Assembly: GCA_004321885.1 (NCBI GenBank)
Contig: SCQK01000007.1
Location: 96,001 to 160,000, forward strand
Reading direction: 5' to 3'
Origin: Patescibacteria group bacterium
Lineage (GTDB): Bacteria > Patescibacteriota > Patescibacteriia > Magasanikbacterales > GWA2-37-8
Length of the DNA stretch: 64,000 nt
Shown: one piece after another, positions 4,850-54,022 of the stretch
Numbering within the stretch: position 1 is the stretch's first letter
How the letters are laid out: the number at the start of each line of letters is the position of its first letter
Notes under the pieces: generated by a model
Database searches by the model: none
What the model saw: only the letters and a program-made list of their open reading frames with translations
Told to the model about the DNA's origin: nothing
Made by a program: the position numbers and the translations under genes

Positions 4850-4852
4850 ACA

Positions 4853-4937
4853 TTTGTCATTGCGAGGAGTGGAGCGACGAAGCAATCCCTTGCGTTATGT
4901 CTGGGATTGCTTCGGCCTTTCAGGCCTCGCAATGACA
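4853..4937. repeat. Family B MITE-like element (gtcattgcgagg...cctcgcaatgac, ~80 bp), intergenic copy
   Basis: Terminal inverted repeats gtcattgcgagg / cctcgcaatgac with an internal gggattgcttcg motif; further copies at 19833-19915, 20934-21008, 22239-22313, 36107-36197 and 59758-59838. Confidence 0.8.
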
Positions 4938-5561
4938 CTATTGTTTTAACATACTCGCCGCGGCGCTCGTGGTGGAATTCATTATTTCTTGCACTGTGGC
5001 GAGCAAGTCATTGTCGGAAATTTTATCCAATATGTCTTTGTCCATCCCGGCCGCTGTCAGCATTTCGCGCAATTGCTTGGGGTCGCTTAGGGCCTTGTTG
5101 ATATCAAGCAAAGCCGTGCTTGTGGCCGGCGGTTCGGCCCCCAAAGCCGCGGGCGCGGCCGGCAAGGCCTCGCCGGCGCTCATCAGAGAACAATCTTTGC
5201 CCTCGGCGCAATTTGGATTGGCGCCCTTGTCAATCTCTTGTTTGTCGCTGGCGCCGTCGGAATCGCTGTCGGCCAAATACGGGCTGGTTTGATAAATATA
5301 CAGCTCATCAAAATCGTTTAAGCCATCTTTGTCTGTGTCGCGAAAACGCAGGGTTTCTATGCTAATCGTGTCGTGCGCTTGAAAAGGAGGAATTTTGCTG
5401 TTTAAGGCAAACGGCGCCAGCATGGTATTGCGCAACTGCAAATAGCCAAGCCCCACGGCGAGAAGCGCAAAAATAGATAGCAGTAACAACCCTATCTTTT
5501 GGTGTCTGGATAAGTGTTTTTGAAAATCTACCGGCGATTGTTCGTCCGGCATAGTAATCAT
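4938..5561 (-). CDS. Membrane-anchored protein with calcium-binding (thrombospondin type 3-like DxDxDG) repeats
   Basis: N-terminal TM helix (IGLLLLSIFALLAVGLGYL) and motifs DTDKDGLNDFDE and DSDSDGASDKQE; a similar motif pair occurs in the L,D-transpeptidase at 16668-17306. Confidence 0.5.
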   Translation of the reverse strand: MITMPDEQSPVDFQKHLSRHQKIGLLLLSIFALLAVGLGYLQLRNTMLAPFALNSKIPPFQAHDTISIETLRFRDTDKDGLNDFDELYIYQTSPYLADSDSDGASDKQEIDKGANPNCAEGKDCSLMSAGEALPAAPAALGAEPPATSTALLDINKALSDPKQLREMLTAAGMDKDILDKISDNDLLATVQEIMNSTTSAAASMLKQ

Positions 5562-5636: not shown

Positions 5637-6662
5637 TTATACCACAAAATTGTCTCGCAGTAATGTGGATAACTGTTTCCACTGCTCTACGGATAATTCT
5701 TGAGCGCGAATGTTTGGGCCAATACCCATTTCAGTAAAAATTTTTTCCAATTTTTCTTTAGCGCCCTCATTGTCATTCCCCCGACTAAGTACGGGGGAAT
5801 CCAGCAACGGCTGTAAATTCTTTATCAATAATTTGCGTTTTTGCGCGAATCCGGCTTTGACCACTTTGAAGAACCACTGTTCATTGTCATCATCGCTGTC
5901 ATCGCTGGCTCCATAGTCCCCCAAAGGGGGCTGTGGAGCCAGAGTGCCGGCCGACATCACGGCTCCATAATCCCGGTCGCCTGCGGCGACCGTGGAACTA
6001 TGGAGCCAGCGATGTTGCTCCATTCCTCGCAATGACAATTTTATCACCGCGCTGTCCACCTTGGGTTCGGGCCAAAAAAATGTTTTCGGCACTTTCATTA
6101 TTATTTCCGGCTCGGCGTAATATTGAACGGAAACAGCAAGCAAAGACATATCCCCCGGCCCAGCGCAAATTCTTTCGGCCACTTCTTTTTGCACCATGAG
6201 TACCATCACGGACGGACTGTCCGCTTCTCCCGCAACAGCGGGATCCCGCTCGCCGCGGGACAAAAATTTACGCAACACGTTGGAAGTGATTTGATACGGC
6301 AGATTGGCCACAACTTTGTATTCTTTATTCCCCATTCCTAATTCTCTATTTTTCAACACATTTCCCCACGCAATTTCCACGTTCTTATGTTTCTTCACTT
6401 GCTCTTCCCAATACGGCTGGAGTTTTTTTTCAATTTCATAGGCAATGACTTTGCCGGCGCGCTCGGCCAGCGCAAAGGTGAGCGCGCCAAAACCCGGGCC
6501 GATTTCAACCACCGTGTCTTTTTTGGAAATTTCCGCCGCCGCGAGCATCTTTTCTATTGGCTCTTCGCGCAACAAAAAATTCTGCCCGTATCGTTTGCTG
6601 GGAGTGAGGCGATACTTGGAGCAGAGATATTTTAAGTGTGAGGTAGCAAATAAGATGGACAT
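5637..6662 (-). CDS. rsmA: 16S rRNA (adenine1518/1519-N6)-dimethyltransferase RsmA/KsgA, carrying three in-frame repeat insertions
   Basis: GQNFL start motif, SAM-binding VVEIGPGFGALT, NLPYQITS and VLMVQKEVAERI motifs. The C-terminal half contains repeat-derived segments (family E about 5925-6035, family A 5771-5804). Confidence 0.85.
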   Translation of the reverse strand: MSILFATSHLKYLCSKYRLTPSKRYGQNFLLREEPIEKMLAAAEISKKDTVVEIGPGFGALTFALAERAGKVIAYEIEKKLQPYWEEQVKKHKNVEIAWGNVLKNRELGMGNKEYKVVANLPYQITSNVLRKFLSRGERDPAVAGEADSPSVMVLMVQKEVAERICAGPGDMSLLAVSVQYYAEPEIIMKVPKTFFWPEPKVDSAVIKLSLRGMEQHRWLHSSTVAAGDRDYGAVMSAGTLAPQPPLGDYGASDDSDDDNEQWFFKVVKAGFAQKRKLLIKNLQPLLDSPVLSRGNDNEGAKEKLEKIFTEMGIGPNIRAQELSVEQWKQLSTLLRDNFVV

Positions 6663-6752: not shown

Positions 6753-7376
6753 CTATCGCTTATCGCTTATCTTCACGCACCCTTGCCTGATAATTTTAAT
6801 TTTTTCAAACTTCACGCTTACTATCGTACTTGGTTTTCTGCGCGGCAGTTTGCCGGCGTCCAGCAAAAAATCCGGCGCGTATTTTTTGCCGGCGAACTTT
6901 TTTATGATATCGCTACTATTATATATATCCCCTTCTCCGCCTATATTGGCCGAGGTGGCGACGAGCGGCCGGCCGAGCGCGGCGCATAATTTTTTGGCCA
7001 ATGGATGCGACGTGACGCGCAGGGCGAGGGTGTTGTTTGATACGACACCGGCGGCCAGACGAAAAGGGATTCCTCGCCGCGCTCGGAATGACAATGAAGC
7101 GACAATCGTGAGCGGGTCGTGCCAATATTGTTTTGCCAATTTTCCAATCGTCTTGTTCCAAACTAAATATTCTTTCGCCATGGCGACAGAAGACGCGACA
7201 ACCAAAAGCGGTTTGCTCTTTGGCCGCTTTTTTATCTTAAAAATTTTATCCACTGCTTTTTGATTCGCCGCGTCGCAACCCAAACCATACGAGGTCTCGG
7301 TGGGGAAAACGACAATTTGACCACTCTTCAAGGCAATAAAAATTTTTTCTATCTCACTTTTTTTCAAGATTATCAT
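6753..7376 (-). CDS. tsaC: L-threonylcarbamoyladenylate synthase (TsaC/YrdC/Sua5 family)
   Basis: YrdC-fold motifs VFPTETSYGLGCDA and LLVATSANIGGEG; contains a short repeat-derived insert (gggattcctcgccgcgctcggaatgaca around 7060-7095). Confidence 0.8.
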   Translation of the reverse strand: MIILKKSEIEKIFIALKSGQIVVFPTETSYGLGCDAANQKAVDKIFKIKKRPKSKPLLVVASSVAMAKEYLVWNKTIGKLAKQYWHDPLTIVASLSFRARRGIPFRLAAGVVSNNTLALRVTSHPLAKKLCAALGRPLVATSANIGGEGDIYNSSDIIKKFAGKKYAPDFLLDAGKLPRRKPSTIVSVKFEKIKIIRQGCVKISDKR

Positions 7377-12934: not shown

Positions 12935-13972
12935 TCATTGGTAATTGGTAATTTTTAATTTCCACTCTTCTCTATATTTCGCCCTGGTGTCATTCTCGTG
13001 AAATTTCAAAATGCCGTCGGAAATCACCACGCTCTTGTCGCCCGCGGCGGCTTTTTCTTTCAAAGAGAACATAAGCCGAGCCATCTGAAGCGCTTTTACC
13101 TGCCCTTCAATCAAATCGCCATACGTTCCGGCCCACATTTTTTCCCAAATTGTTTTCCAAATTTTGCCAAGCCGTGAATCGCGCAAACGCAAGCGCGAAA
13201 CAACTTCAAATCGCGCCAAGGCATTGGGCAAGTATTTTTTTGTCCACGAATTCGCGGCCAAAAAATTGGCGTAATAATTGCCGGGGTCGTATATCGGAAT
13301 CATCTGGTGTATCCAATAAGCAAAATGTATGTCATCATCGGCCACGCGTAAATTTTCCAAATTTAAGTGTTCGCTGTCCGCGTAAAACGACAAACAGACG
13401 CGATTTTTGTGCTTTTGGCCATACACGCGCAAACCCCACAATCGCAAAATTAAATTGGTAAAAAACCGCGCCAACCAGACGCGGCGCGGGGCGGCGACGA
13501 TGAAAAAATCAATGTCGCTTTCTTCCTTCGCCTGCTCCATACCCACGCTGTTGCAGACAAAAACCGCTTTCACAAACGGCGCCGAACGGATTTTTTTGGC
13601 GGCCCGGCGCGCGATTTTTAATTTCTTCTCCGTTTCCGCCAGCCGCGCCCGCCGCGCCTCAACTGTCCCCGCTCGCCCGGGAAGAAAATAATAACTGAAT
13701 TTTGTTTCAACCTTTCTGTCATCCTGAACTTGCTTCAGGATCTCTAAAAATTGCGCAAACCCCATCGCCGGCGCCTGCCCCCACACCAAAGAATTTGGTG
13801 TGGGGGGCGTCCACAAAAAAGAATACACCTCTTCGCGCGTCAGAGGATAATCGGCCGAATCAAAATAAGCCAGAGTTTTCTGAATACTTTCAAGAAGAGC
13901 TTTTTCCATAGGGCTCTTTGTCTGAAATTTCCGCCGCACAAATTGCCAAGCCCTTGTTGCCAATTTCCACAA
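12935..13972 (-). CDS. Hypothetical protein (possible nucleotidyltransferase-fold; carries a family F repeat in frame)
   Basis: 345-aa ORF; GMEQAKEESDIDFFIV resembles a nucleotidyltransferase hG[GS]...D.D motif. 13718-13748 is a family F repeat translated as FAQFLEILKQVQDD. The start may instead be the Met at 13909, since the upstream gene ends at 13890. Confidence 0.45.
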   Translation of the reverse strand: MWKLATRAWQFVRRKFQTKSPMEKALLESIQKTLAYFDSADYPLTREEVYSFLWTPPTPNSLVWGQAPAMGFAQFLEILKQVQDDRKVETKFSYYFLPGRAGTVEARRARLAETEKKLKIARRAAKKIRSAPFVKAVFVCNSVGMEQAKEESDIDFFIVAAPRRVWLARFFTNLILRLWGLRVYGQKHKNRVCLSFYADSEHLNLENLRVADDDIHFAYWIHQMIPIYDPGNYYANFLAANSWTKKYLPNALARFEVVSRLRLRDSRLGKIWKTIWEKMWAGTYGDLIEGQVKALQMARLMFSLKEKAAAGDKSVVISDGILKFHENDTRAKYREEWKLKITNYQ

Positions 13973-18290: not shown

Positions 18291-18928
18291 TGTTCGTTTT
18301 CTTTGACAAAAATTTCTTTTTCCACGCCAAAAGATAGCTCTTCCAAGAACGCGCGGATTTTTTCCGGACGATGATAATATGATTCAATGAGCACTTCCAC
18401 CCCGCCGGTTTTCACGAGCGGCGGGTCTTTTTGGTTGATATTGGTCACCACAAAAATTCCGCCGTCTTTGAGCACGCGATAGACCTCGTCAAAAAACCGG
18501 CGCGGATCTTTTAGGTGCGCGATAAGAAAAGCGGCCAGCACGATGTCAAAGGTTTCGTTTGCAAACGGCAAATTTTCCGCGTCGCCCACCACTGTCGTAA
18601 TGTCATACTGAATTTGTTTCATTATCTCCGGTCGCAAAATTTTTCGCTTCAGCATCTCCAGCATCTTGGGCGAGATGTCCAAAGCGGTCACGCACGCTCC
18701 CCGCTTGGCCAAATACAAAGAGGCCCGCCCGGTGCCCGCGCCGACATCCAAAATTTTTTTGCCCGCCACCACACCAAAATTTTTAGTGTGGTGGCCGGAC
18801 ACGTCGCCGAGCATGGAAAATAATTTTCCCTGTTCAAAACTGTTCAGGTATTTTTCTTTTTCATCGTAATACTTGGCCGCCAAATTATATCCTTCGGCCG
18901 ATGACAGAACCTGTATTTTTTTGGTCAT
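18257..18928 (-). CDS. Class I SAM-dependent methyltransferase
   Basis: Motif I ILDVGAGTGRASLYLA, an acidic residue after beta2 (VTALDIS) and motif post-I FDIVLAAFL. Confidence 0.75.
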   Translation of the reverse strand: MTKKIQVLSSAEGYNLAAKYYDEKEKYLNSFEQGKLFSMLGDVSGHHTKNFGVVAGKKILDVGAGTGRASLYLAKRGACVTALDISPKMLEMLKRKILRPEIMKQIQYDITTVVGDAENLPFANETFDIVLAAFLIAHLKDPRRFFDEVYRVLKDGGIFVVTNINQKDPPLVKTGGVEVLIESYYHRPEKIRAFLEELSFGVEKEIFVKENEQWVNQILCARK

Positions 18929-20463
18929 AGATGTTTACCCCTCCCTAACCCTCCCCTTATAAAGGGGAGGGCAATAATAATATACAACAATATCGTCATC
19001 CACCAGCTGATTCGTATTTCCAGCGCGGCCCAGCCCTGTTTTCCAAACCATTCCACTAACATTATAACATACCCAAGTCCGACGCCAACAATCCAGGCCA
19101 CTATCTGTCCCAAAGGAAAAAATATGAAACCGAGCATGACCGCGGCGAATCCAAAAAGCATCAGCCACGGGATAATCCACAGCACCAGCAAATTCACGAG
19201 CGGCGCAACGATAGAGAGGCGGCCGAATTGAAACAGCATCAAAGGCAAAGTGGCGATGATGGCGGAAAGGGTTTGCACCAATGTTTGAAAGAAAAAATTA
19301 ATACTGTCATTGCGAGGAGCCGGAAGCGACGAAGCAATCCCAAGCGATAAATATACGAGTCCCAAAGTCGCTAAAAAAGACAGTTGAAACCCCGCGTCCC
19401 ACACCAGCACGTACGGATTAAAAAGCAACATCAGCGCCGCGGTCAGCGCCAGCACATTGCCCACGCGCGACAAGCGACCCATTTGTTGCGCCAGCAAAAC
19501 AATCACGCCCATTATTCCGGCGCGCACCACCGAAGCCGAGGCGCCGGTAAAGAGCACGAATAAAATTATGCCAACGACCACGGCCCAAAACGCGCGAGGG
19601 CGCGACAGCCCGGCCAGAATAAAAAAACTCATCAGCGCCAAGGCGATGATACTAATGTTGTATCCGGATATGGCGATAATATGAGTGATGCCCGAACGAT
19701 TAAAATCCTCCAGCAGCTCCGTCGGCAGGCCGCTACGCGCGCCGTAGAGCAGTCCGGCCATCAAACTGCTCTTCGGCTCTGGCCAAAGTTTGTCCACCTG
19801 ATTCGCGACAGCCGATTTAAGGCGTAACATGTCATTGCGAGCGACCGTAGGGAGCGCGGCAATCCCATTCTTTGCAAGGGATTGCTTCGTCGTTTCACTC
19901 CTCGCAATGACAGGATTCCCGCACACCGACCAAATCCCATAGCGCGCCAAATACTGGTCATAGCGAAATCCGTCCGGGCTCGCTTTTGGCTCTTGCAATA
20001 CACAAGACAAATTCAACTCCTCTCCATACTCATAGCGCGGATACAGTGGCAGCCAAAAAATAATTTTACCGGAAATATTTTTTGGACAAACAAACGACTG
20101 CCCCGCGCAACTTTTTACTTTCGCCACGTATTTCACGTTGCTTATCCCCGCTTCCGGCTCTTCGCTTACAGCCGCCGTCACTTCCATTTTCTCGCCGTTG
20201 TAATATTTGATACTGCTCGGCGTGATTTTCGGCACGCTGATTAAAAAACGCAAGCCGCCCAAAATAAAAAACAACGCGCAAAGCAGGGCGAAGCGCCAAA
20301 CTTTTTTCTGCCACAGCATTACGGCGAAAAAAAGCGCGGCAAACGCCGCGATAAACAAAGGAAACTGCCAATCACTATTTTCCTGAAGCGAAAACAAACT
20401 CACGCCGGCTATAAAACAAAAGCAAAACGCGAGAAACGTTTTGCTTTTAGAGTGCATTGTCAT
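18925..20463 (-). CDS. comEC: ComEC/Rec2 competence protein, N-terminal (DUF4131) plus polytopic competence-channel domain
   Basis: Competence-domain signature GLPTELLEDFNRSGITHIIAISGYNIS and multiple TM helices. I trimmed the start to MTMHSKSK (20463/20457) because the longer ORF (20697) overlaps leuS. Contains in-frame family B insertions (19300-19345 and 19833-19915). Confidence 0.75.
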   Translation of the reverse strand: MTMHSKSKTFLAFCFCFIAGVSLFSLQENSDWQFPLFIAAFAALFFAVMLWQKKVWRFALLCALFFILGGLRFLISVPKITPSSIKYYNGEKMEVTAAVSEEPEAGISNVKYVAKVKSCAGQSFVCPKNISGKIIFWLPLYPRYEYGEELNLSCVLQEPKASPDGFRYDQYLARYGIWSVCGNPVIARSETTKQSLAKNGIAALPTVARNDMLRLKSAVANQVDKLWPEPKSSLMAGLLYGARSGLPTELLEDFNRSGITHIIAISGYNISIIALALMSFFILAGLSRPRAFWAVVVGIILFVLFTGASASVVRAGIMGVIVLLAQQMGRLSRVGNVLALTAALMLLFNPYVLVWDAGFQLSFLATLGLVYLSLGIASSLPAPRNDSINFFFQTLVQTLSAIIATLPLMLFQFGRLSIVAPLVNLLVLWIIPWLMLFGFAAVMLGFIFFPLGQIVAWIVGVGLGYVIMLVEWFGKQGWAALEIRISWWMTILLYIIIALPFIRGGLGRGKHL

Positions 20464-20474: not shown

Positions 20475-23012
20475 TCACACAACTATACTCACCAACTTTC
20501 CTTTCACGTAAATCACTTTCTTGGGTTGTTTGCCTTCCAGCCATCTCTGAATTTTTTCGCTGGCGAGCGCGCGGCTCTTCGCCTCTTCTTCGGAGATTCC
20601 CGCCACCACTTCCAAAGTGTCGCGCAACTTGCCATTCACCTGCACGGCCAGAGTGATTTCTTTTTCTTTGGCCAGCTCGGGGTCGTACTTCGGCCACGGT
20701 TCAAATGTGATGGATTTTTTATGTCCCAATAGCGACCACAACTCTTCGCACATGTGCGGAGCGAAGGGCGAAAGAATTTTTACGAATAATTCAAAATTCG
20801 CGATGGAAATTTTTGCCTGCTTTGAAAATTCATTACTCAATTCCATCATTTTCGCTATGGCCGTATTAAATCTCATCGCTTCAATATCTTCGGTGACTTT
20901 TTTGATTGTTTGGTGAAGTAGCTGCGTCATGCTGTCATTGCGAGGAGCCGAAGGCGACGTGGCAATCCCTTTCTTTGTTTGGGATTGCTTCGCTTCGCTC
21001 GCAATGACATTGAGCCCCCACACCCTCTCCAAAAACCTACGCACCCCTATCAATCCATTCGTATCCCACTCCACGGCCTGGTCAAACGGCCCCATGAACA
21101 TTATATACGTGCGCAAAGAATCCGCGCCGAATTTTTCCACCATTTCGTCCGGGTTTACCACGTTGCCTTTTGATTTACTCATTTTTTCTCCGCCTTTGGC
21201 TAAAATCATGCCGTGGCTGGTGCGTTTTTTGTACGGCTCACGCGTGGGCACAGCGCCGATGTCAAACAAAAACTGATTCCAAAAACGGGAATACAACAAA
21301 TGTAGAACCGTGTGCTCCATGCCGCCATTATACCAATCCACGCCGCCTTCGCCCGGCTTCGCGGGCTTCGGCGGGCAAAGCCAATATTTTAGCTTTTCCA
21401 TTGAGGCCAATTTCTTATCGTTTTTCGGGTCGCAGTAGCGCAAAAAATACCAACTGCTTCCGGCCCAATTCGGCATGGTGTCTGTTTCGCGCCGAGCCGG
21501 GCCGCCACATTTCGGGCATTTTGTTTTCACCCATTTTTCCATCGCGGCCAAGGGCGATTCGCCTGTGTCGGTCGGCTCATATTTTTTCACTTTCGGCAAT
21601 TCCAAAGGCAAATCTTCTTCCGCCAGCGGAATCCATCCTGGATTCAATCGCTCACCATCGTTTGGAAATTGGAAATTGGAAATTGGAAATTCCGCTTGTT
21701 TTTCGCACGCGGGACAAAAAACAAGCGGGATGGGTTCGCCCCAATAGCGCTGTCGCGAAAACACCCAATCGCGGAGTTTGTATTGCACTTTTTTCTCGCC
21801 AATCTTTTTTTCTTCCAGCCACTTCATTATTTTTTCCATCGGCTCGGGCACGATTTCCTTTATCGGCAAATTAAATTTCTTGGCAAACTCACTGTCGCGC
21901 TCGTCGTGCGCGGGCACGGCCATAATGGCGCCGGTGCCATAACCGGCCAAAACATAATCCGCTACCCACACCGGAATTTCCTTACCCGTGGCCGGGTTAA
22001 TCGCTTTGATACCCTTCAATTCCACGCCTGTTTTCTCTTTTTGAAGCTCTGTCCTCTCTAAATCCGATTTTTTCTTAGCTGATTCAACATATTTTTTTAC
22101 TTCGTCTATATTTGGAAATTGGAAATTGGAAATTGGAAATTTGAGGAGCGAAGCGACGAGTTCATGTTCGGGCGCGACAACCATGTACGTGGCGCCGAAG
22201 AGAGTGTCGGGGCGAGTGGTGAAGACCTCAAGCACACTGTCATTGCGAGGAGCCGAAGGCGACGTGGCAATCCCTTTCTTTGTTTGGGATTGCTTCACTT
22301 CGTTCGCAATGACAAATTTAATCATCGCGCCTTCGCTTCTGCCAATCCAATTTTCCTGCTGGACTTTTGCGCGTTCAATATAATCCACCTCTTTCAAGCC
22401 CTCCAGTAATTTATCCGCGTACTTGGTAATCGCCAGCATCCATTGCTCCTTATTGCGCCGCTCCACCGGCGTACCACAGCGCTCGCACTTGCCGTCCACC
22501 ACTTCCTCGTTGGCTAAGCCGATTTTACACGACGGGCACCAGTTTATGGGCATGGCTTTTTTGTAAGCCAAACCGTGCTTGAAAAGCTGTAAAAAAATCC
22601 ACTGGGTCCATTTGTAATATTTCGGGTCCGTGGTATCCACCTGCCGCGACCAATCAAAACTTAAACCGAGCGATTTTAGCTGGCGCGTGAAATTGGAGAT
22701 GTTTTTTTTCGTCACCTCGGCCGGGGGTTTGCCGGTCTTGATAGCAAAATTTTCCGTCGGCAGGCCGAAAGCGTCAAATCCAATAGGATACAAAACATTG
22801 TAGCCCTCCATGCGGCGCTTGCGCGAAATAATATCCATGGCCGTGTAGGCGCGCGGATGTCCCACGTGCAAACCCTCGCCGCTCGGATACGGAAACTCAA
22901 TCAAAGAATAAAACTTCTTTTTTTTCTTATCTTCTTTAACCTCAAAAGTCCCGTTCTCTTCCCAAAACTTCTGCCACTTTTTTTCAATTTTTTTCGGGTC
23001 GTATTTTGGCAT
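20475..23012 (-). CDS. leuS: Leucyl-tRNA synthetase, with four in-frame repeat insertions
   Basis: HVGH (HIGH-type) motif near the N-terminus, KMSKS, and editing domain. Two family B insertions (both translated ...[20 protein letters not shown]...) and two GGAAATT microsatellite insertions (FPISNFQFP). Confidence 0.9.
20934..21008. repeat. Family B element inserted in frame in leuS
   Basis: gtcattgcgaggagccgaaggcgacgtggcaatccctttctttgtttgggattgcttcgcttcgctcgcaatgac; an identical copy at 22239-22313 lies also inside leuS. Confidence 0.85.
22114..22141. repeat. Family C GGAAATT heptamer microsatellite (4 copies) inside leuS
   Basis: ggaaatt x4; other arrays at 21663-21683, 36368-36398, 58432-58460, 60418-60452, 60885-60915 and intergenic 17300-17345. 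Confidence 0.85.
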
Positions 23013-23013: not shown

Positions 23014-23790
23014 TTATTTAAACAACTCCAATAATTTTTTATGCAAAACCGGATTGGCGACTATAATATCACACTCGCCTCTCTTCCACTCCTCTCCAAA
23101 ACTGTTTGTCCATTTGGCTCCGGCTTCGGTGGCGATAACATACGGCGCCAAAAAATCATGATAAAAACCGGCGTTGGTCACGACCGCGTCTATGCGGCCC
23201 GCGGCCAAATGGCACATGGTTAAAATTGTCCCCATATTATGTAGCCAGCACCCGGTGTCGCCGTTTATATTATTCCAAAAACGCACATAATCCTTAAATC
23301 TTTTTTGCCCGTTTCCGCAACCCACCGCGCCCTGGCTGAAAATCAAAAAACAATGCTCCACCTTATCGTAATTTCCAACTTTAATCCGCTCCCCGTTCAA
23401 GTACGCCCCCTCGCCTTTTTGCGCCCAAAACAATTCATCATTCATGGCATCGTAAATCGCGCTCAAGTATGGCGTTCCATTTTTTGTCAGGCCGACCATC
23501 ACGCACCACATCGCCACATGGTTGGCGAAGTTACGTGTGCCGTCTATTGGGTCTATCACCCAGGTATGCTCGGCCCCCGGATTTATTTCCTCTTTTCGTT
23601 CTTCGGAAATTATTCCGTGGTCCGGATATTTTTCCAAGATTTTTTCTATCAAAAATTTCTCCACTTCCGTGTCCGCTTCGGTAATTACGTCCGACGGATT
23701 TGATTTGACGCCGCTTTTGACCCCTTTCAAATAATATCCCTTGGCCAAATACCCGGCTTCTTTAATGGTGGATTTTACAAATTCAAGCAT
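23014..23790 (-). CDS. Inositol monophosphatase family protein (SuhB/CysQ-like)
   Basis: IMPase motifs [12 protein letters not shown] and the metal-binding region; 258 aa. Confidence 0.8.
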
Positions 23791-23895
23791 ACTTTATACC
23801 CCACCCTGTGTCCCTCCCCTAAAAGGGGAGGGGAATGTTTGCGTGCCTACATTTTATCGCAAACAGGGCTAAAAATCAAATTACGCCCGGATAAA

Positions 23896-23924
23896 TTGAC
23901 CTAACTGCCCAGTTCGTTTATACT
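23896..23924 (+). promoter_or_regulatory. Strong sigma70-like promoter (TTGACC-17-TATACT) of an orphan ~250-nt transcription unit
   Basis: ttgacc at 23896-23901, a 17-nt spacer, tatact at 23919-23924. Confidence 0.55.
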
Positions 23925-24000
23925 ATTGCTAAGCGTGGTGTGCTGTCTGTCGCTTATCAGCGGCTGAAAGCCCCACACAACACTCCAACGAGGAGGAACA

Positions 24001-24057
24001 ATGAAAGTCGGCAACAGAGCAGGCCCGGCCCAGAGCCGAGCCAACAACACGCGCTGA
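24001..24057 (+). CDS. Putative 18-aa small ORF (MKVGNRAGPAQSRANNTR) with a strong Shine-Dalgarno
   Basis: gaggagg sits 5 nt upstream of the ATG; it lies between the promoter at 23896 and the terminator at 24152. Coding status is uncertain and the transcript may instead be an sRNA. Confidence 0.3.
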   Translation: MKVGNRAGPAQSRANNTR

Positions 24058-24151
24058 TCGCAGAAGCCAACCGCCTCTTCGGGGCAGGAGGTGAAAATGC
24101 ACTGGCCGTGACAAACACGGACGGCGTAGGCACTGTGACGGAGCAGGACCA

Positions 24152-24182
24152 GGGGGCGGTCTCGACGACGCCCCTTTTTTTA
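24152..24182 (+). terminator. Rho-independent terminator
   Basis: Stem ggggcg/cgcccc with a 10-nt loop (gtctcgacga), followed by seven T. Confidence 0.6.
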
Positions 24183-24190
24183 ATCTCAGC

Positions 24191-24316
24191 TAAATTAAAA
24201 CGGAGGGTATATATAATTTTTGTAGCGGCCATCGCACCCCCGCGGGGCAGCGGTCGCCGCAGGCGACCCTGTTTGGCCGCAAAAAAATTATATATACCCT
24301 CCGTTGTTTTAATTTA
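24191..24316. repeat. Long perfect AT-rich palindrome (about 33-bp arms) enclosing a conserved 57-nt GC-rich structured core, copy 1 (downstream of trxA)
   Basis: Arms taaattaaaacggagggtatatataatttttg / caaaaaaattatatataccctccgttgttttaattta; core gcggccatcgcacccccgcggggcagcggtcgccgcaggcgaccctgtttggccgc. The right arm overlaps the trxA stop codon. Confidence 0.8.
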
Positions 24317-24634
24317 CGCGTACTTCTCCAGCATCTCTTTCAACTTCTCTTTCTGCACCCCGCCCGTCAGCTGGTCCACTATCTGGCCGTCCTTGAAAAC
24401 CATAAACGAAGGGATACTCAACACACTATACTGCGCGGCCGTGTCGCCGTTCTCGTCCACATTCATCTTGCCGATTTTAATGTTCTTGCCCTCAAATTCC
24501 TTGGCCAATTCTTCCACTATCGGCCCCATCATCTGGCACGGCCCGCACCACGGCGCCCAAAAATCCACAAACACCGGCTGTTTGGATTGCAAAACCTCCT
24601 CGTTAAAATTTTTGTCGGTAAACACGTTGTCCAT
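24314..24634 (-). CDS. trxA: Thioredoxin
   Basis: 106 aa with the WCGPC active site (FWAPWCGPCQMMGP). Confidence 0.9.
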   Translation of the reverse strand: MDNVFTDKNFNEEVLQSKQPVFVDFWAPWCGPCQMMGPIVEELAKEFEGKNIKIGKMNVDENGDTAAQYSVLSIPSFMVFKDGQIVDQLTGGVQKEKLKEMLEKYA

Positions 24635-24698
24635 ATTTATTTTTTTCTGGATTCCCCCGTACTTAGTCGGGGGAATGACAGCTTGTGTTTAATTATTA

Positions 24699-24803
24699 GC
24701 AAAGTTTTGTGATTTTTTTCGCAGCGGCCATCGCACCCCCAAGGGGCAGTGGTCGCCGCAGGCGACCCTGTTTGGCCGCAAAAAAAAATTCACAAAACTT
24801 TGC
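24699..24803. repeat. Copy 2 of the conserved 57-nt core in a different perfect palindrome (about 22-bp arms), upstream of trxA
   Basis: Arms gcaaagttttgtgatttttttc / gaaaaaaaaattcacaaaactttgc; core gcagcggccatcgcacccccaaggggcagtggtcgccgcaggcgaccctgtttggccgc, in the same orientation as copy 1. Confidence 0.8.
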
Positions 24804-24805
24804 CT

Positions 24806-26824
24806 TTAACTTAACACCAACTTTTTCTCCTTTTCCTCTTCCTTGTAACACTCCAGCACATCATCTATCTCCAATTTTAATTTACCCTCAAACTGCGCCC
24901 CGCACTCGCTACCCTCGGGCACTTCGTTCAAAATCTGCTTGGCCACCTGCAACTGCGACAACTTACCCAAGCCGATAATCTCTTCCCCGCGCTTTACTCG
25001 CGCTTTACAGCCCTTCTGCAGTTTGCCCTGTTCCACGCGGCCGCCGACTATCATATTGCCCTTGCCGGTGCGGAAAATCGCCACCACCTTGAACACCCCG
25101 AGTTCAGTAGTAATTTTTTCCGGACTCAACAACTTGCCCATTTCTTCTTTGACGAAATCCAGCAGGTCGTAAATTATTTTGTACTCATTATACACTAATT
25201 TTTTATCGCGCGCCATTTCTTGCGCCACCGGGTTGATGGTAACATTAAAAGCAAAAAGCATGGCGCCGGCGGCTTCGGCCTTGGCCACGTCATCTACCGT
25301 CACATTGCCCAGGCCCTTGCCCACCACGCGCACGCCCACCTCGTCATTTTTAATTTTTCCCAGCGAACCGATAATCGCTTCCAGCGAGCCGAGCGTATCG
25401 CCCTTCACCACCACGTTCAAAACCTTCTTTTGCTCGTCGCTTTCAGCCGCGCCCAGGGCAAAAGTTTCTTTTTCCGCGCCCATCTGCTTATTTTTTTTCT
25501 CTTTTATGTCAATGGCCTTGGCCCCGGCGGCCGCGGCCACGTCCAAAATATCCCCCACGGCCGGCGCCACCTTAAATCCCAGAATGCGCGCCGGACAGCT
25601 GGGCGGGGCCGTCAGCAAATTTTCTCCTTTGTGATTTTTCATGGCCCGCACCTTGCCGTAAATCTCGCCGTTTATCACCAGCGGGTCGTTCACGCGCAAA
25701 GTGCCGGTCTGCACCAAAATCGTGGCCACCGGGCCTTCGCCCTTGTCCACGTGCGCCTCAATGACCGTGCCCGCGGCCGAGCGGTCCGGATTGGCTTTAA
25801 TGCTGTCGGCATGCACGTCGGCCACTAAAAGCAACACATCAAGTAGCTTATCTATGTGCAAATTCTGTTTGGCGGAAATTTCCACCATGGGCGTGTCCCC
25901 GCCCCACTCCTCGCCTATCACTCCGTTTTGCGACAAATCAACGCGCACCTTTTGCGGGTCAGCTCCCTCTTTGTCAATTTTATTGAGCGCCACCACGGTC
26001 GGAATTTTGGCGGCCTTGATAATGTTTATCGCTTCCAAGGTTTGGGGCTTGACGCTGTCGTCGGCCGCCACCACCAGAATGGCGATGTCAGCCACCTTGG
26101 TGCCGCGGCTGCGCATCACCGTAAAGGCCTCGTGCCCGGGAGTGTCTATAAATGTCAGGGGGGATTTTTCTTTGGTTTTGGGATTGGTCCAAATCACCTG
26201 ATAAGCGCCGATGTGCTGGGTAATGCCACCAGCCTCGGATTCCATGACATTGGTGCGTCGAATAGCGTCTAACAATTTTGTTTTACCGTGGTCAACGTGC
26301 CCCATCACCACGATAACGGGCGGGCGGCGCGTGGTAGCGTCCGCGGCCAAAATTGATTCCAAATTATTTTCGTGCGCCGAGACTGCTTCGGTTTTTTGCT
26401 CGGGTTCGCGCACGGTAAAACCGAATTCCTGCGCCATCAGCACGGCCGTGTCATGGTCCAGGCGCTCGTTTTGCGCAGCCAAAATTCCGTTTTTCATGAG
26501 TTCAACGATAAGGCCGGTAACCGGCATCTGCAAAATATCGGCGAATTGGCGCACGGTCAGCTGGTTTGGTATGGCCACGCTGGCGCCGCTCGTCTGGCGC
26601 GCCTCTTTTTCCAGCTCTTTTTGTTTTTCTTTTTCCTTGCGCTCGCGCTCTTCCAGCACGAACTTTATCCGTTTCCAGGCGCGCTGAATCTGCTGGGCCA
26701 CGCGGTCATCCACTTTCACGGCCCGAGCGCCGATATCAAAACCAAACTCTGGCAAAATTTGCAAAAGTTTTTGGGGGTGGACTCGGAGTTGTCTGGCCAG
26801 TTCGCTTACGTTCATAAAGCTCAA
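24806..26824 (-). CDS. infB: Translation initiation factor IF-2
   Basis: GTPase domain (GHVDHGKTKLLD, DTPGHEAF, NKIDK), then IF-2 domains II-IV; 672 aa. Confidence 0.9.
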   Translation of the reverse strand: MSFMNVSELARQLRVHPQKLLQILPEFGFDIGARAVKVDDRVAQQIQRAWKRIKFVLEERERKEKEKQKELEKEARQTSGASVAIPNQLTVRQFADILQMPVTGLIVELMKNGILAAQNERLDHDTAVLMAQEFGFTVREPEQKTEAVSAHENNLESILAADATTRRPPVIVVMGHVDHGKTKLLDAIRRTNVMESEAGGITQHIGAYQVIWTNPKTKEKSPLTFIDTPGHEAFTVMRSRGTKVADIAILVVAADDSVKPQTLEAINIIKAAKIPTVVALNKIDKEGADPQKVRVDLSQNGVIGEEWGGDTPMVEISAKQNLHIDKLLDVLLLVADVHADSIKANPDRSAAGTVIEAHVDKGEGPVATILVQTGTLRVNDPLVINGEIYGKVRAMKNHKGENLLTAPPSCPARILGFKVAPAVGDILDVAAAAGAKAIDIKEKKNKQMGAEKETFALGAAESDEQKKVLNVVVKGDTLGSLEAIIGSLGKIKNDEVGVRVVGKGLGNVTVDDVAKAEAAGAMLFAFNVTINPVAQEMARDKKLVYNEYKIIYDLLDFVKEEMGKLLSPEKITTELGVFKVVAIFRTGKGNMIVGGRVEQGKLQKGCKARVKRGEEIIGLGKLSQLQVAKQILNEVPEGSECGAQFEGKLKLEIDDVLECYKEEEKEKKLVLS

Positions 26825-26826: not shown

Positions 26827-27240
26827 ACCCTCTCCTGTTAGGGGAGGGATAAAGGGATGGGGTATCCACTCAATATCCCTAAAATCTTACTCTCTTACAC
26901 TGAATTAGTCAAATACGGGAATATCGCTGGCTCCATAGTGCCCGACTTAGTCGGGGCTGTGGAGCCGTAATGCACTCTGGCTCCACGCACAGCATGGAGC
27001 CAGCGACATTTGACACGCGCCCGATTTTGTGATAAAGTGATTTCACAATTAAAATAATAATTCTGGATTCCCCCGACTTAGTCGGGGGAATGACAGATGA
27101 GATTTTTGAGGGAATTTTTTAAGAGGAAACTCGTATGGCTCGTGCGGCTGAAACTGCCAAAAATACGCTAACGAAAACACTTTCAAGCGCTATCCGTGTG
27201 TGGGTTCCCCCGTACTTAGTCGGGGGAATGACAAACGAAT
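26827..27240. repeat. Intergenic repeat hotspot with a family D hairpin, a family E element and two family A copies
   Basis: 26827-26862 (D), 26925-27010 (E: ggctccatagtgcccgacttagtcggggctgtggagcc...), 27063-27098 (A), 27203-27238 (A); a 500-bp spacer between infB and rny. Confidence 0.8.
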
Positions 27241-35138: not shown

Positions 35139-35255
35139 AGAGGAAAAAATTAATGACTAAGATAGAGATATGATACACCTTGAACAAAAAACGGGCAATA
35201 GCAAATACCGAGCGCGTTGACATCAGCCCTTTTTTTAGGGTATTATTAAGCCAAT

Positions 35256-35441
35256 GTCAGGGTAGCTCAGTTGGTAAGAGCACAGGATTCACCCTCCCAC
35301 CAAAATGGCTGGGTAGCTCAGTTGGTAAGAGCACGGGATTCATAACCCCGAGGTCGGCAGTTCGATTCTGCCCCCAGTCACGATTGTTTGGTGGGAGGGT
35401 GAATAACCCTGAGGTCGAGGGTTCGACTCCCTCCCCTGACA
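35256..35441 (+). tRNA. tRNA(CAU)-like gene interrupted in the anticodon loop by a 112-bp insertion (candidate intron or pseudogene)
   Basis: Perfect acceptor gtcaggg/ccctgac, D arm gctc-agttggtaa-gagc, T arm gaggg-ttcgact-ccctc. The anticodon stem cagga/ccctg is split by caccctcccacc...ggtgggagggtg (a 14-bp helix) that encloses the tRNA at 35307-35380. Removing 35292-35403 yields the loop ttCATaa. Confidence 0.5.
35307..35380 (+). tRNA. tRNA-Met/Ile2 (anticodon CAU), elongator type; CCA not encoded; nested inside the interrupted tRNA
   Basis: Acceptor ggctggg/cccagtc (G-U at 2:71), D arm gctc-agttggtaa-gagc, anticodon stem cggga/ccccg with loop ttCATaa, variable loop aggtc, T arm ggcag-ttcgatt-ctgcc. 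G1-C72 argues against an initiator. Confidence 0.8.
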
Positions 35442-35443: not shown

Positions 35444-36529
35444 ATGCTTCTGTTAGGCATAGAGTCATCTTGCGACGATACTTCAGTGGCCCTGGTCGCC
35501 TGCGGCGAACGGGGCTGTTTTGTGGTTGCCGAAAAAACCGCTTCGCAAACCGCGCTCCATAAAAAATACGGGGGCGTGGTGCCGGAAATAGCCGGGCGGG
35601 CGCACGCGGAAAAAATCGTGCCCCTGATTGAGGCGGTTCTGCGAGGAAAAAAGCCGGATGTTATCGCCGTAACCGCCGGACCCGGATTGATTACCGGTTT
35701 GCTGGTTGGCGTGGAAGCGGCGCGCGTTTTGTCATACGCGTGGAATGTGCCGCTATTGGCGGTAAATCATATTGAAGGGCACATCTATTCCGTGGAATTG
35801 GAAAACGAAAAAATCAAGTTCCCCGCTCTCGCGCTTATTGCCAGCGGTGGTCATACCGAGCTGATTTTTATGAAAAACCACGGCCAGCACAAACTGCTTG
35901 GCGCCACGCGCGACGACGCGGCCGGCGAATGTTTTGACAAGGTCGCCAAACTGCTCGGTCTCCCCTACCCGGGCGGTCCGGAAATTTCTCGGCTGGCGAT
36001 TGGCGGCGACCCGGGCGCCATAAAATTTCCGCGGCCGATGATAGAAAGCGATAATTACGACTTCAGTTTTGCCGGATTAAAAACCGCGGCGCTGTATTGG
36101 TTAAGGGATAATGTCATTGCGAGGCCTGAAAGGCCGAAGCAATCCCCCACAATCAAGCAAGGGATTGCTTCGCTTCGTTCCACTTCGCTCGCAATGACAA
36201 TGAATGATTTCTGCGCCAGTTTTGAGCAAGCGATAGTAGACGTCTTGGTCGCGAAAACTCTGAAAGCGGCCAGACAATACAAACCGAAAACCGTTATTCT
36301 TGCTGGCGGGGTTTCGGCGAACAAGAAACTTCGCTCTGCGCTTGAAAAGGCAATAAAAACTCTCGCTCCAATTACCAATTTCCAATTACCAATTTCCAAT
36401 TATTGTATGGACAACGCGGCCATGCTCGCCGTGGCCGGATATTATCGCGCGAAGAAAAAAAATTTCACTGATTGGAAAAAAATCCAAGCTGACCCGAATT
36501 GGACGATTTCTGGATTCCCCCGTACTTAG
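35444..36529 (+). CDS. tsaD: tRNA N6-adenosine threonylcarbamoyltransferase TsaD (Kae1/YgjD family) with in-frame repeat insertions
   Basis: MLLLGIESSCDDTSVAL start, HIEGH metal-binding motif and GGVSAN. I trimmed the start from 35180 because that ORF runs through the tRNA genes. Insertions: family B (36107-36197), GGAAATT-type (36368-36398) and family A at the 3' end (36512-36546). Confidence 0.85.
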   Translation: MLLLGIESSCDDTSVALVACGERGCFVVAEKTASQTALHKKYGGVVPEIAGRAHAEKIVPLIEAVLRGKKPDVIAVTAGPGLITGLLVGVEAARVLSYAWNVPLLAVNHIEGHIYSVELENEKIKFPALALIASGGHTELIFMKNHGQHKLLGATRDDAAGECFDKVAKLLGLPYPGGPEISRLAIGGDPGAIKFPRPMIESDNYDFSFAGLKTAALYWLRDNVIARPERPKQSPTIKQGIASLRSTSLAMTMNDFCASFEQAIVDVLVAKTLKAARQYKPKTVILAGGVSANKKLRSALEKAIKTLAPITNFQLPISNYCMDNAAMLAVAGYYRAKKKNFTDWKKIQADPNWTISGFPRT

Positions 36530-48393: not shown

Positions 48394-48436
48394 TTTCCCT
48401 CCCCTTTATAAGGGGAGGGATAGGGAGGGGTAAATT

Positions 48437-48943: not shown

Positions 48944-49045
48944 TAAGAGGAGAGCGAGAGAGGGGTATCGCGGTTTCCCCTCCCCTTTTTAAGGGGAGGG
49001 TGAGGGATGAGTAATCGTCAATTCCCCCGCCCCTTTATAAGGGGC
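48935..49045. repeat. Three tandem family D GGGGAGGG hairpins
   Basis: cctctccccttgataagaggagag, cccctcccctttttaaggggaggg and cccccgcccctttataaggggcgggcggggg variants. Confidence 0.8.
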
Positions 49046-49074
49046 GGGCGGGGGTGGGGTAAACAATCGCCAGT

Positions 49075-49509: not shown

Positions 49510-49554
49510 TAAGGGGAGAGCGAGAGAGGGGTAAACACTCTTACTCACACTAAA

Positions 49555-51637: not shown

Positions 51638-54022
51638 ATGAACATCATGGACCGTTTTTCCACTCATCTGCGCGAGGCGCTGGTGCGCGGCATCCGCCTG
51701 GCCACCGAGCTGGGCAACGAACAGGTAGAGCCCGCGCATTTGTTGTTCGCGCTCTTTACCCAAAAAGGGTCCGTGGCCGCCGAAATGCTGGTCAAATTCA
51801 AGATTGATTCCAAAACTATTGAACGCGCCATCATGGACCTGCCCTCCAGAAAAAGCGAACGTCAGGAAGGATTCAACGCGCAAATCATCATCACCCCCCT
51901 CTCGGCCGGCGCCAAAGCAGCTATGGAAAAGGCCATCTTATCCGCCCAGGAAAACAGCCACAACTACATCGGCACCGAGCATTTGCTTTACGCGCTTATA
52001 AAAATCAAAGACAATATTTTGGAAAATATTTTCTCCGCCAGCAACACCGACGAGCGCGAACTGTTGGCGCAAGTGGAATCCTTGCTCGCCAACTCCACCA
52101 AATTTCCGGCCATCAGCGAAATGGCCGACATCTTTGAAAAAATCCAAGAAAATTTGGAAGAAAATTTTCTGCCGCCGTCCGCTCCGCGGCCAAACGACAA
52201 AAATAAAAATAAGAAAAAAAACGGGGCCCTGGAATATTTTGCCGCCAATCTCACCAGCCCCGACATCCAAAAATACATTGACCCGGTCATCGGCCGCCAA
52301 GCCGAAATAGAACGTCTGGAGCATATCCTTTGCCGCCGCACCAAAAACAACCCCATCTTGCTCGGCGACCCTGGTGTGGGCAAGACCGCCATTGTGGAAG
52401 GCATGGCCAAAAAAATCCTGGCCAACGACGTGCCTGACATACTGCTGAACAAAAAAATCTATTCGCTGGATATGGGCCTCCTCATCGCCGGCACCATTTA
52501 TCGCGGCGAGTTTGAGGCGCGCATCAAGCAAATCATAGACGAGGTAGCGGCCAATCCCGACATCATTCTTTTCATAGATGAAATCCACAACATCGTGGGC
52601 ACCGGCTCCAATCAGGGCACCATGGACGCGGCCAATATCCTAAAACCGGCCCTGGCCCGCGGGCAAATCCGCTGTATCGGCGCCACCACCCCGGGCGAAT
52701 ACAAAAAATACATTGAAAGCGACCCGGCCCTGGAGCGCCGCTTCCAGCCCATCTACATCAAACAGCCGAGCGTGGAAGAAACTATCAAAATTTTAAGCGG
52801 GGTGCGCAAAAATTACGAACAGTACCACAATCTTAAAATCACCAACTCGGCCATAGAAGCGGCCGTAAAACTCTCCGACCGTTTTATCGCCAATAAACTT
52901 TTGCCGGACAAGGCCATAGATTTACTGGATGAAACCGGCGCGGCCAAGCGTCTGAAAACGCGCTTGCCGCTGGCGGAAAAAATTCATCGCTTCGGCATTA
53001 TTACGGCCGACGACGTAGCCAGACAGCTGGCCAAAATCATCCAAACGCCGGTTGATTCATTGTTGTTAAACGAAAAAGAAAGGCTGGTCTCGCTGGAAGA
53101 CGAGCTGAAAAAATATATCGTGGGCCAAGACGAAACCATCGGCGGGGTGAGCAAGTTTATCCGGCAGGCGCAACTGCAGTTGTCTAATCCCAACCGGCCC
53201 ATGGCTTCGTTTCTGTTTGTCGGCGAAAGCGGGGTGGGCAAAACCGAGCTGGCCAAAGTGATGGCGCAGGCGCTTTATCCCGGCCGCGAGGCGCTCATTA
53301 AGCTGGACATGAGCGAATTCAGCGAAAGCCACAGCGTTTCCAAACTCTTGGGCTCGCCGGCCGGCTATGTGGGCTATCGCGAAAGCAACCAATTGATAGA
53401 CGCGCTAAAAATAAACCCGTACAGCGTGATTTTGTTTGATGAAATAGACAAAGCGCACAAAGACGTTTCCAAATTGCTTTTGCAAATGCTGGAAAACGGC
53501 GAGGCCACTGATTCTTCGGGCAAAAAAGTTTCACTAAAACATTCTGTCATAGTGCTCACCACTTCCTGGGGAGCGCAGGATATCAAAAAATCCGCTTTCG
53601 GATTCAGTGGTAGTAAAACGGACAACAACTGTCATTCCCGCGAAAGCGGGAATCCAGTCGCCAAGGAAACCGAATCCCGCCTCAAAGAAAAACTGAAAGA
53701 ATTTTTCTCGGCCGAACTCATCAATCGGCTGGACAAAATCTTCTTGTTTAATAATTTATCGGCCGAAGATCTCGGTAAAATCGGCCAAATGGAAATTGAA
53801 CGGCTGAACGAACGCCTGAAAAGATACAAAACCGCGGTGGCGGCCGAGCCGGAATTTTTGGACTGGCTTACGCGGGTATCGGCCAAAAACAGCAACGCGC
53901 GCGATGTGCGTCAGGAGGTGCGCGGGGCCATAGAAAACCTGATGGCTGAAATTATTCTCGCCGAAAACATCAAAGACGGCTACTCGCTTTTTGTGGAAGA
54001 AGACCGAATAAGAATACGGTAA
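51638..54022 (+). CDS. clpC: ATP-dependent Clp protease ATP-binding subunit (ClpC-like AAA+ with two nucleotide-binding domains)
   Basis: Clp_N repeats, Walker A1 [13 protein letters not shown] and Walker A2 [12 protein letters not shown], ClpB/ClpC D2 small domain; an in-frame repeat (53629-53657) is translated [10 protein letters not shown]. Confidence 0.85.

Follow-up and report, generated by a model that had tools for sequence, protein, structure and literature searches.

The leuS gene in a 64-kb stretch of the Patescibacteria contig SCQK01000007.1 (here called the window, meaning the whole of the DNA analysed) is probably a working gene, whose product, leucyl-tRNA synthetase (LeuS), carries four lineage-specific peptide segments that come from two kinds of dispersed repeat. 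Two segments are encoded by copies of a 77-bp element, referred to as family B, and two by arrays of the heptamer AATTTCC. The preliminary description of this DNA had already claimed four in-frame segments from two dispersed families in leuS, and the intact open reading frame (ORF) of 845 amino acids (aa) together with the repeat coordinates confirms it. The segments, numbered as sites 1 to 4 from the N-terminus, lie as follows, together with a hairpin abutting site 3 and a fifth variable segment:

20475..23012, minus strand: leuS, 845 aa, uninterrupted ORF with HIGH and KMSKS motifs
22238..22314, minus strand: family B element, N-terminal leuS copy (site 1), encoding V234-D258 in the first beta-hairpin of the editing domain
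22112..22141, minus strand: (AATTTCC)x4.3 array, LeuS site 2, 30 bp, perfect, encoding F292-N301 in the editing domain
21662..21691, minus strand: (AATTTCC)x4.3 array, LeuS site 3, 30 bp, perfect, encoding F442-N451 just after the CxxC zinc knuckle
21692..21728, minus strand: hairpin adjoining the site-3 array, CCGCTTGTTTTT-[13 nt]-AAAAACAAGCGG
20933..21009, minus strand: family B element, C-terminal leuS copy (site 4), encoding V669-D693 in the linker ahead of the anticodon-binding domain
21342..21377, minus strand: fifth lineage-variable segment, aa 546-557, low-complexity with 9-10-nt periodicity, outside the dispersed families

The family B copies had been described as 75-bp elements at 20934-21008 and 22239-22313, which are the same elements less the terminal T and A. 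Both heptamer arrays were found as well, but the first of them had been drawn too short, as 21663-21683, and actually spans 21662-21691. The inserts had been discussed together under the heading of palindromic elements; this fits the family B hairpins, whereas the arrays are not palindromic and represent a separate kind of repeat. Both arrays are read as the same 10-residue peptide.

The LeuS product matched the LeuRS of Thermus thermophilus with E=4e-206, and the catalytic, editing and anticodon-binding domains were matched in Pfam. The motif residues H49-V50-G51-H52 and K610-M611-S612-K613-S614 fall in invariant columns of the LeuS ortholog alignment. An identical protein recorded at NCBI (Patescibacteria group bacterium, 214,539-bp contig) is annotated as leucine--tRNA ligase, and the gene order IMPase, LeuS, ComEC, methyltransferase, metallo-beta-lactamase, YkuD is also found in relatives. 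That the repeats arose through misassembly or chimeric joining of this metagenome-assembled genome is exceedingly improbable. Short-read assemblers can be misled by short dispersed repeats, and the LeuS protein cluster comprises one sequence from one contig; however, the 845-codon frame is kept through four separate inserts, analogous inserts occur at the same loops in independent NCBI, JGI and ENA assemblies, and the heptamer array lies within intact housekeeping ORFs of dozens of unrelated contigs.

LeuS was aligned with 37 orthologs (60-70 % BLASTP identity, or 65-80 % over aligned columns), and a codon alignment was made with the two closest syntenic orthologs, P0003 (80 % identical) and P0005 (77 %). 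Such an alignment had been suggested in the preliminary description, and its outcome was favourable, as P0003 and P0005 lack all four repeat segments. They also lack the fifth segment, which is missing in Thermus LeuRS too and has variants common to P0022, P0033, P0040, P0049 and P0088. Relative to these two orthologs, the net gains amount to 19 aa at site 1, 6 aa at site 2, 21 aa over the whole site-3 loop and 16 aa at site 4. A neighbour-joining tree from 735 ungapped columns places the LeuS of the window with P0003 and P0005, far from P0007. No repeat family of the window has a copy in the P0003 and P0005 contigs, a set that takes in 22 kb of conserved synteny on a 963-kb contig.

The AlphaFold2 model of LeuS, built from the ortholog alignment, has a mean predicted local distance difference test score (pLDDT) of 80.7 and a predicted template modelling score of 0.73, and compares with solved LeuRS structures at template modelling scores of 0.80-0.83. 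The pLDDT drops below 50 in three long stretches, at residues 239-257, 548-555 and 681-691, which correspond to the two family B inserts and the fifth segment, and also in two brief ones (517-519 and 562-566). In the model, at the editing-domain entry, the site-1 insert lengthens the turn that joins strands 225-237 and 260-265, and the site-4 insert sits between helices 651-680 and 693-711. Both arrays are in coil between helices, the one at site 2 between helices 284-291 and 302-313. Surface loops had been predicted for the inserts, and low-confidence or coil regions are indeed where they fall. Judging from the model, the insert positions are probably solvent-exposed and distant from the active sites, and the translated family B inserts are predicted to form disordered loop extensions.

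Larger additions to LeuS were seen in other members of the phylum. Many Patescibacteria LeuS homologs (P0002-P0120) are 950-1358 aa long and have Nudix, alpha/beta-hydrolase or HAD domains in the same polypeptide, and the L148 LeuS has a Nudix-like segment within the editing region.

The two leuS copies of family B, each 77 bp including the terminal T and A, are 97 % identical to each other and stand in the same orientation and frame, so that both peptides begin with VIA(S/N)E(A/V). They fold as long hairpins of -27 and -22 kcal/mol (DNA parameters; z = -8.3 and -4.9), and across the family the z-scores of the single hairpin range from -4.9 to -8.4. The element has 12-bp terminal inverted repeats, and its terminal 12-mer TGTCATTGCGAG has 13 exact occurrences in the window, counting both strands, where the length would predict about 0.01. 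The heptamer pattern gave 12 matches in the window and none in 100 shuffles. With these counts neither repeat type can be due to chance. A tagged-hairpin scan resolved family B into two inverted half-units, TGTC-ATTGC-(12-22 nt)-GCAAT-CCC, with the tags pointing outward, a 5-bp stem (ATTGC/GCAAT) and the tail CCC(T/A). In leuS the loops of the half-units measure 12 and 20 nt. The other copies in the window are:

19830..19912, minus strand: family B element in ComEC (VIARSETTKQSLAKNGIAALPTVARND), missing in the syntenic L002 ortholog
19305-19350: half copy of family B in ComEC
36112..36199, plus strand: family B element in TsaD, 88 bp
4855..4937 and 59761-59838: intergenic family B copies

Family B is free of stops in three to four of the six frames and the heptamer array in all six (frames checked directly), which would make survival inside genes easier. 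Every intragenic copy is in frame and stop-free in the frame used. Nowhere do the elements split or frameshift a gene of the window, a point in favour of read-through over skipping. An alternative would be that they stay untranslated, being removed or skipped as introns, inteins or bypass elements such as those of T4 gene 60 and mitochondrial byp. The family B element would indeed give a strong mRNA hairpin, and the bypass elements of yeast mitochondria are small mobile palindromes too. Skipping, however, would not need frame-keeping, stop-free copies, and the inserts probably do not fall in this class. At 10-26 aa (30-88 nt) they are far too short for inteins or group I/II introns, and no Rfam family is found at them, the whole window yielding two tRNAs and nothing else at gathering thresholds. 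We therefore regard this alternative as very unlikely.

To see how widely the element occurs, one genome per bacterial species was scanned with the pattern TGTCATTGCGAG-N40-70-CTCGCAATGACA, which gave at least 120 stretches. Among the matches listed, the family B type was present in Bacteroidota, Chloroflexota, Planctomycetota, Proteobacteria, Cyanobacteria, Nitrospirae, Verrucomicrobia, Patescibacteria and others, and 8 of 128 elements lay within an ORF that continued for 60 codons or more to either side. Four of the six complete copies in the window lie within coding sequence, which differs from the 8/128 among these matches (Fisher p=5e-4). The family B type thus appears to be widespread and normally extragenic, and what seems unusual in the window is its placement.

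The half-units belong to a larger population. The window is 87 % coding, with a set of 31 Pfam-recognised genes, and it contains 31 TGTC-tagged units compared with about one in shuffled sequence. The scan required an A-T stem start, and all 31 units, the four half-units of leuS among them, have TGTC directly before the stem. Eighteen of them are inside ORFs, below the expectation from the coding fraction (p=5e-5) yet many times the usual share, which fits random landing followed by loss of harmful copies. Several are single repetitive extragenic palindromic (REP) units:

53630..53656, plus strand: canonical TGTC REP singlet in ClpC, TGTC-ATTCCCGC-gaaa-GCGGGAAT-CCAG, read as CHSRESGNP
58746-58773 and 58831-58863, plus strand: two TGTC REP singlets in RadA
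5771..5803, minus strand: TGTC REP singlet (family A) in RsmA
7066-7093: degenerate TGTC unit in TsaC
18601-18628 and 18761-18802, minus strand: methyltransferase inserts, a TGTC unit and a family E palindrome, respectively

The stem measures 9-11 bp in family A and 8 bp in the singlets of ClpC, RadA (58746) and a giant ORF (1200) and in the ATCCTGAA family. Loops of 4-5 nt are seen in the canonical singlets outside leuS, and the tail is CCAG in family A and in the ClpC unit. The giant ORF (1-4850, minus strand) has more than 1631 codons and a signal-like N-terminus and runs off the left end; its canonical TGTC unit is at 1200-1226. Both methyltransferase inserts are missing in the L002 and L004 orthologs, and the comparison with syntenic orthologs confirms that these two and the ComEC insert are lineage-specific. 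A 207-aa ORF at 4938-5561 with TGTCAT palindromes on both sides was considered as a mobilising enzyme and rejected, since it encodes a membrane or secreted protein whose match to TSP3 repeats is weak and below threshold.

Altogether 11 of the 31 recognised genes (35 %) have internal repeats, namely those for RsmA, TsaC, the methyltransferase, ComEC, LeuS, TsaD, PheT, the phosphohexomutase, ClpC, RadA and RecG. This agrees with the preliminary description, which had named recG, radA, rsmA, tsaC, tsaD, the phosphohexomutase, ComEC and ClpC beside leuS and had put the affected share at about a third. At least four element families had been claimed, and we count at least five in the genes of the window: TGTC singlets, TGTC doublets, two other palindromes and heptamer arrays. 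The two other palindrome families, CCCTCCCCTTATAAAGGGGAGGG (18939-18975, 48393-49537, 50056-50139, 51040-51407) and CCCACACCAAAGAATTTGGTGTGGG (13773-13814, 18761-18802, 42427-42468), are found in intergenic DNA and in frame in the phosphohexomutase (twice), the C-terminus of ComEC, the methyltransferase, PheT and a hypothetical protein.

The nature of the heptamer arrays is a separate question. Apart from leuS, they are present at these loci:

36367-36402: heptamer array in TsaD
58433-58458: heptamer array in RadA
60423-60452, minus strand: heptamer array in RecG, with an abutting hairpin at 60453-60490 (15-bp stem) and a second array at 60888-60913

At LeuS site 3, the abutting hairpin codes for the conserved P-L-V-F with its 5′ arm, for CPAC (the CxxC) with its loop and for EKQA(E) with its 3′ arm. 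The same arms are present in three other array-bearing orthologs, where they are followed by four units of AATATCC, AAATCAG or AAATCCG. The stem stays perfect in P0069 through a compensatory change of CCG/GCG to CCC/GGG, and in the array-less P0022 the hairpin is missing. In RecG the 5′ arm encodes the conserved FVVCP, and the window protein reads PLI[GANN]EE...DKKS where the RecG of T. maritima has PLIEESDKLNVKS, the additional 11 aa corresponding to a 12-nt inverted copy plus 21 nt. Two TsaD genes have an array at one site, with hairpin arms made from each gene's own codons. As the simplest hypothesis, the gene itself would serve as template for the 3′ arm when the array arises. An arm that is an inverted copy of the upstream gene sequence would point to fold-back or template-switch synthesis, or to later correction to a perfect palindrome.

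A metagenome scan for (AATTTCC)4 gave at least 120 contigs; its pattern called for four units or more and thus covered no shorter arrays. Among the matches listed, to which all figures in this paragraph refer, 78 of 120 arrays (65 %) are inside long ORFs, 53 read as FPISNFQ and 25 as GNWKLEI on the other strand (binomial p=0.002). The length of the perfect array peaks at 30-33 bp with a mode of 30 bp, few exceed 36 bp, and arrays longer than ~39 bp are nearly missing in coding DNA. In the AATTTCC orientation the left edge is sharp, whereas the right edge often fades to degenerate heptamers. A locus-specific hairpin (score >=8) was found at the left (5′) edge in 23 of 114 cases, as opposed to 1 of 114 at the right edge, with control positions giving 1.2 % (p about 1e-21), and the left-edge rates are alike for sense, antisense and non-coding arrays.

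We consider it doubtful that the arrays are ordinary microsatellites, grown in place by polymerase slippage from one local heptamer. The net gains of ~21 nt, or three units, at site 3 relative to the long-form P0022 (estimated by eye) and in RecG would suit such growth, the K-I-S-N-F of the orthologs at site 2 resembles a proto-unit, the units at site 3 differ between array-bearing orthologs, and heptamer repeats are over-represented in bacteria (PMC4692102). Stepwise growth, however, would pass through frameshifted intermediates in essential genes. Slippage also fits poorly with an identical unit and a 30-bp length at five window loci and at least 120 unrelated contigs and with the scarcity of arrays above ~39 bp in coding DNA, and it does not predict a one-sided hairpin derived from the flank.

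In its place we tentatively raise the possibility, which we hold to be less than even, that the arrays stem from a DNA insertion or repair process which is common in Patescibacteria but has yet to be described. It would copy 7-15 nt of the upstream flank in inverted orientation, giving the locus-specific hairpin, and then about four heptamers, and would act repeatedly in housekeeping genes (LeuS, RecG, RadA, TsaD, PheS, TopA, GuaA, Tgt and others), adding loops of ~10-14 residues. Together with the TGTC doublets, this would make protein loops the main site of selfish or templated DNA in these compact genomes. In the full-text literature searched, we found no description of the AATTTCC array, its peptides or the abutting flank-derived hairpin, and no paper on in-frame repeats in members of the Candidate Phyla Radiation (CPR), nor any on TGTCATTGCGAG termini.

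A second 30-bp array, (AAAAGTC)x4.3, was observed in L006 (2799-2828) and L248 (2532-2561), seemingly at the same site in sister LeuS genes, which suggests that arrays can outlast speciation. The idea of one heptamer unit per genome, made from a single genomic template, was rejected since L006 and L248 each have two different units in leuS.

The LeuS loops are also occupied in other lineages. In the leuS genes of P0007, P0068 and P0115, TGTCAT...ATGACA palindromes of each genome's own subfamily are found at sites 1 and 4, and among the matches listed three metagenome contigs have a heptamer array at site 1. The L004 leuS has six tagged units, and relatives carry from 0 to 11 of them per 10 kb. 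Since other element variants use the same loops in other Patescibacteria, these loops look like permissive landing sites.

Repeated filling of the same loops in several lineages would also be expected if the inserts had been recruited for function under positive selection, either as RNA or DNA structures tuning translation, mRNA stability or replication, or as new loops, e.g. for partner binding in an epibiotic cell. The site-3 hairpin, perfectly paired in four orthologs including the compensatory change in P0069, and the array length sharply held near 30 bp among the matches listed point in the same direction. We nevertheless find recruitment unlikely. The near relatives do without any insert, the peptides at the same loop are wholly different between lineages, the family B peptides are predicted to be disordered, and the same elements occur in unrelated proteins and in intergenic DNA. 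The compensatory change in P0069 is equally possible by templated copying.

Taken as a whole, tolerated in-frame inserts from two kinds of dispersed repeat are the best explanation, and we hold it to be likely. The 77-bp element, an inverted doublet of TGTC-tagged stem-loops, would have spread as non-autonomous DNA through a putative enzyme acting in trans. Insertions would hit all of a genome that is 87 % coding, and selection would retain those that keep the frame, lack stops and fall in tolerant loops. The retained inserts would be translated as loop extensions between secondary-structure elements, the LeuS loops being permissive sites that have accepted other variants in other Patescibacteria. 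Some heptamer insertions would also bring in 11-15 nt of upstream gene sequence, copied in inverted orientation by fold-back or template switch and not by simple slippage. In this account we infer the mode of insertion, the movement of either repeat and the neutrality of the inserts.

Several observations weigh against this explanation. The net gains in LeuS differ from the element lengths (25-26 and 10 aa), so these are not clean insertions; the insertion may have replaced loop residues, or the ancestral loops may have differed. The closest LeuS in 5.8 billion proteins is ~80 % identical, with no same-species empty-site allele among them, and because the relatives are so distant the exact insertion boundaries and their timing are not recoverable. 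No target-site duplication was found at the six full family B copies, whose flanks share no direct repeat. Neither a transposase nor a Y1/HUH or RAYT protein was recognised in the 41 window ORFs (Pfam E<=1e-5) or in the 10 unassigned ORFs (E<=1), the search covering these 64 kb only. Mobility is therefore deduced from dispersal and lineage presence/absence, and the presumed translation of the inserts from frame preservation.

In a sliding-window comparison with L001, L002, L004, L005, L006 and L247-L249, the nucleotide identity of leuS is mosaic. The window gene resembles P0003, P0005 and P0050 in the editing domain, P0022 and P0068 at aa 512-602, and P0007 around aa 663-730, around and after site 4. 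This suggests, from the sequences compared, recombination between lineages, and shared occupancy of loops could then reflect recombination or old insertions and not repeated independent hits, which is a further point against the explanation. The neighbour-joining tree favours independent gains and the mosaic identity counters them; the shared loops could thus represent repeated hits, overwritten old insertions or segment exchange.

Among known systems, the CGTC superfamily of REPs comes closest. It is defined by an unpaired 4-nt tag CGTC (variants TGTC, CCTC) at one end, an 8-9 bp stem starting with A-T, a loop of 4-5 nt and an unpaired three-base tail of consensus CCA (Di Nocera, De Gregorio & Rocco 2013, PMC3733652), and includes Neisseria dRS3 and Rickettsia RPE-4 (CGTC-4) and RPE-6 (CGTC-1). 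According to the same survey, it has no known dedicated transposase, tags-outward dimers are rare among its families, and intragenic REPs are listed for several species, with tRNA synthetase and DNA repair genes among the carriers (PMC3733652). In-frame palindromes had been called otherwise rare outside Rickettsia, which in view of these intragenic REPs was overstated. The window units share the TGTC tag, the CC(A/C) tail, the in-frame position of some copies inside genes and, within the 64 kb, the lack of a visible dedicated transposase. The window singlets largely fit the definition, the A-T stem start being built into the scan that found them. The leuS doublet differs in its 5-bp stem, its loops of 12-22 nt and its outward tags; with the shared tag and tail, this makes it a REPIN-like relative and not a proven member. 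Moreover, Patescibacteria were outside that survey and the coding share, 18/31, is much higher here.

The likeness to the Rickettsia palindromic elements (RPEs) proposed in the preliminary description holds up and is closer than an analogy, because the window units match the superfamily that includes RPE-4 and RPE-6 (PMC3733652); the link rests on the published placement of these two and not on RPE sequence. The window copies resemble RPEs in being in frame in seemingly functional ORFs at fold-compatible positions. As Ogata and co-workers reportedly described in 2000, RPE-1 and its relatives are palindromes in frame in housekeeping ORFs, apparently tolerated in loops and sometimes present twice per gene. 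RPE-1 and relatives are listed in PMC3184786. RPE-1 differs in its length of 105-146 bp, its unrelated sequence and its intracellular alphaproteobacterial hosts, and unlike RPEs, several families act together in the window, affecting 35 % of the recognisable genes.

REPINs have GTAG tags, are extragenic and accompany a RAYT gene flanked by REPs (Bertels & Rainey 2011, PMC3116915). Family B resembles them as two inverted REP units with a short spacer that form one long hairpin and behave as non-autonomous, but its tag is TGTC and no RAYT-like gene is present in the 64-kb window. Compared with a miniature inverted-repeat transposable element derived from an insertion sequence, it has the terminal inverted repeats and lacks the target-site duplication. 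In nematomorph mitochondrial genes, coding palindromes are described as long inverted repeats translated with essential genes; these are organelle genomes with locally made perfect palindromes of up to 284 bp and no dispersed family (PMC6649704).

The heptamer arrays have relatives of another kind. The G-rich heptamers GGGAATC / GGGGAYT of Xanthomonas and Nostoc, typically of four units, avoid coding DNA and have between 2 and 26 units (Rehm et al. 2015, PMC4692102), and other heptamers include the cyanobacterial short tandemly repeated repetitive (STRR) sequences and Beggiatoa TAACTGA (PMC4679880). The window arrays share with the Xanthomonas and Nostoc heptamers a unit of a G-run plus A/T (GGAAATT on the G strand), four G-tracts, the minimum for a quadruplex, and a preference for four units, although the AATTTCC scan itself demanded at least four. 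They differ in having only GG tracts, a flank-derived hairpin on one side, a length of ~30 bp and a coding share of 65 % among the matches listed. Neither are they phase-variable contingency loci, as the copy number is near-fixed at about 4.3 units in the window and in the 120 metagenome arrays listed, and they lie mid-gene in essential genes. All in all, the palindromic part is a denser, doublet-form variant, in a new host, of the known intragenic REP/RPE phenomenon, and for the heptamer-plus-hairpin part we found no description.

These comparisons would carry over to the CPR a phenomenon for which Rickettsia is the best-known case, 'selfish DNA inside proteins', which here affects about one recognisable gene in three of the window. 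A simple reason for this insert density would be that the DNA is 87 % coding, which leaves tolerant protein loops among the few places where repeats can persist. Inserts of this kind inflate and distort marker-protein alignments in CPR phylogeny, and from the LeuS loops that are used repeatedly one can read, with no experiment, where 10-26 extra residues are tolerated in a class I synthetase. We see the heptamer-plus-hairpin part as a more interesting lead than the palindromic part, as a flank-templated hairpin followed by a four-unit array is a sequence signature that could lead to an unrecognised mechanism of templated insertion. Annotation may be affected as well. Opposite leuS, the repeats make long antisense ORFs on the plus strand (21669-22061, 22119-22409 and 22126-22383), some starting with MEIGNWK, and automated annotation could call such spurious ORFs hypothetical proteins.

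Some features of the window lie apart from leuS and its inserts. About 1 kb without a credible gene (23791-24805) separates the IMPase gene from infB and holds two 71-nt direct repeats (24217-24287 and 24716-24786) that are 93 % identical; an Rfam search of 23780-24820 gave nothing at E<=0.1. A further family is represented by two 83-nt structured repeat copies (GCTGGCTCCATAG...TGGAGCCAGCG) at 26923-27005 and 56644-56726, in opposite orientation and both intergenic. The NHL beta-propeller blades of a 907-aa surface-type protein form tandem repeats of 141/282 nt (33437-34254), which look like an ordinary repeat protein and are unrelated to the dispersed families. Directly upstream of the tRNA-Met gene (35307-35381) we observed a 39-nt near-copy of its 5′ half (35253-35291 vs 35304-35342), perhaps the trace of an integration event at this tRNA.

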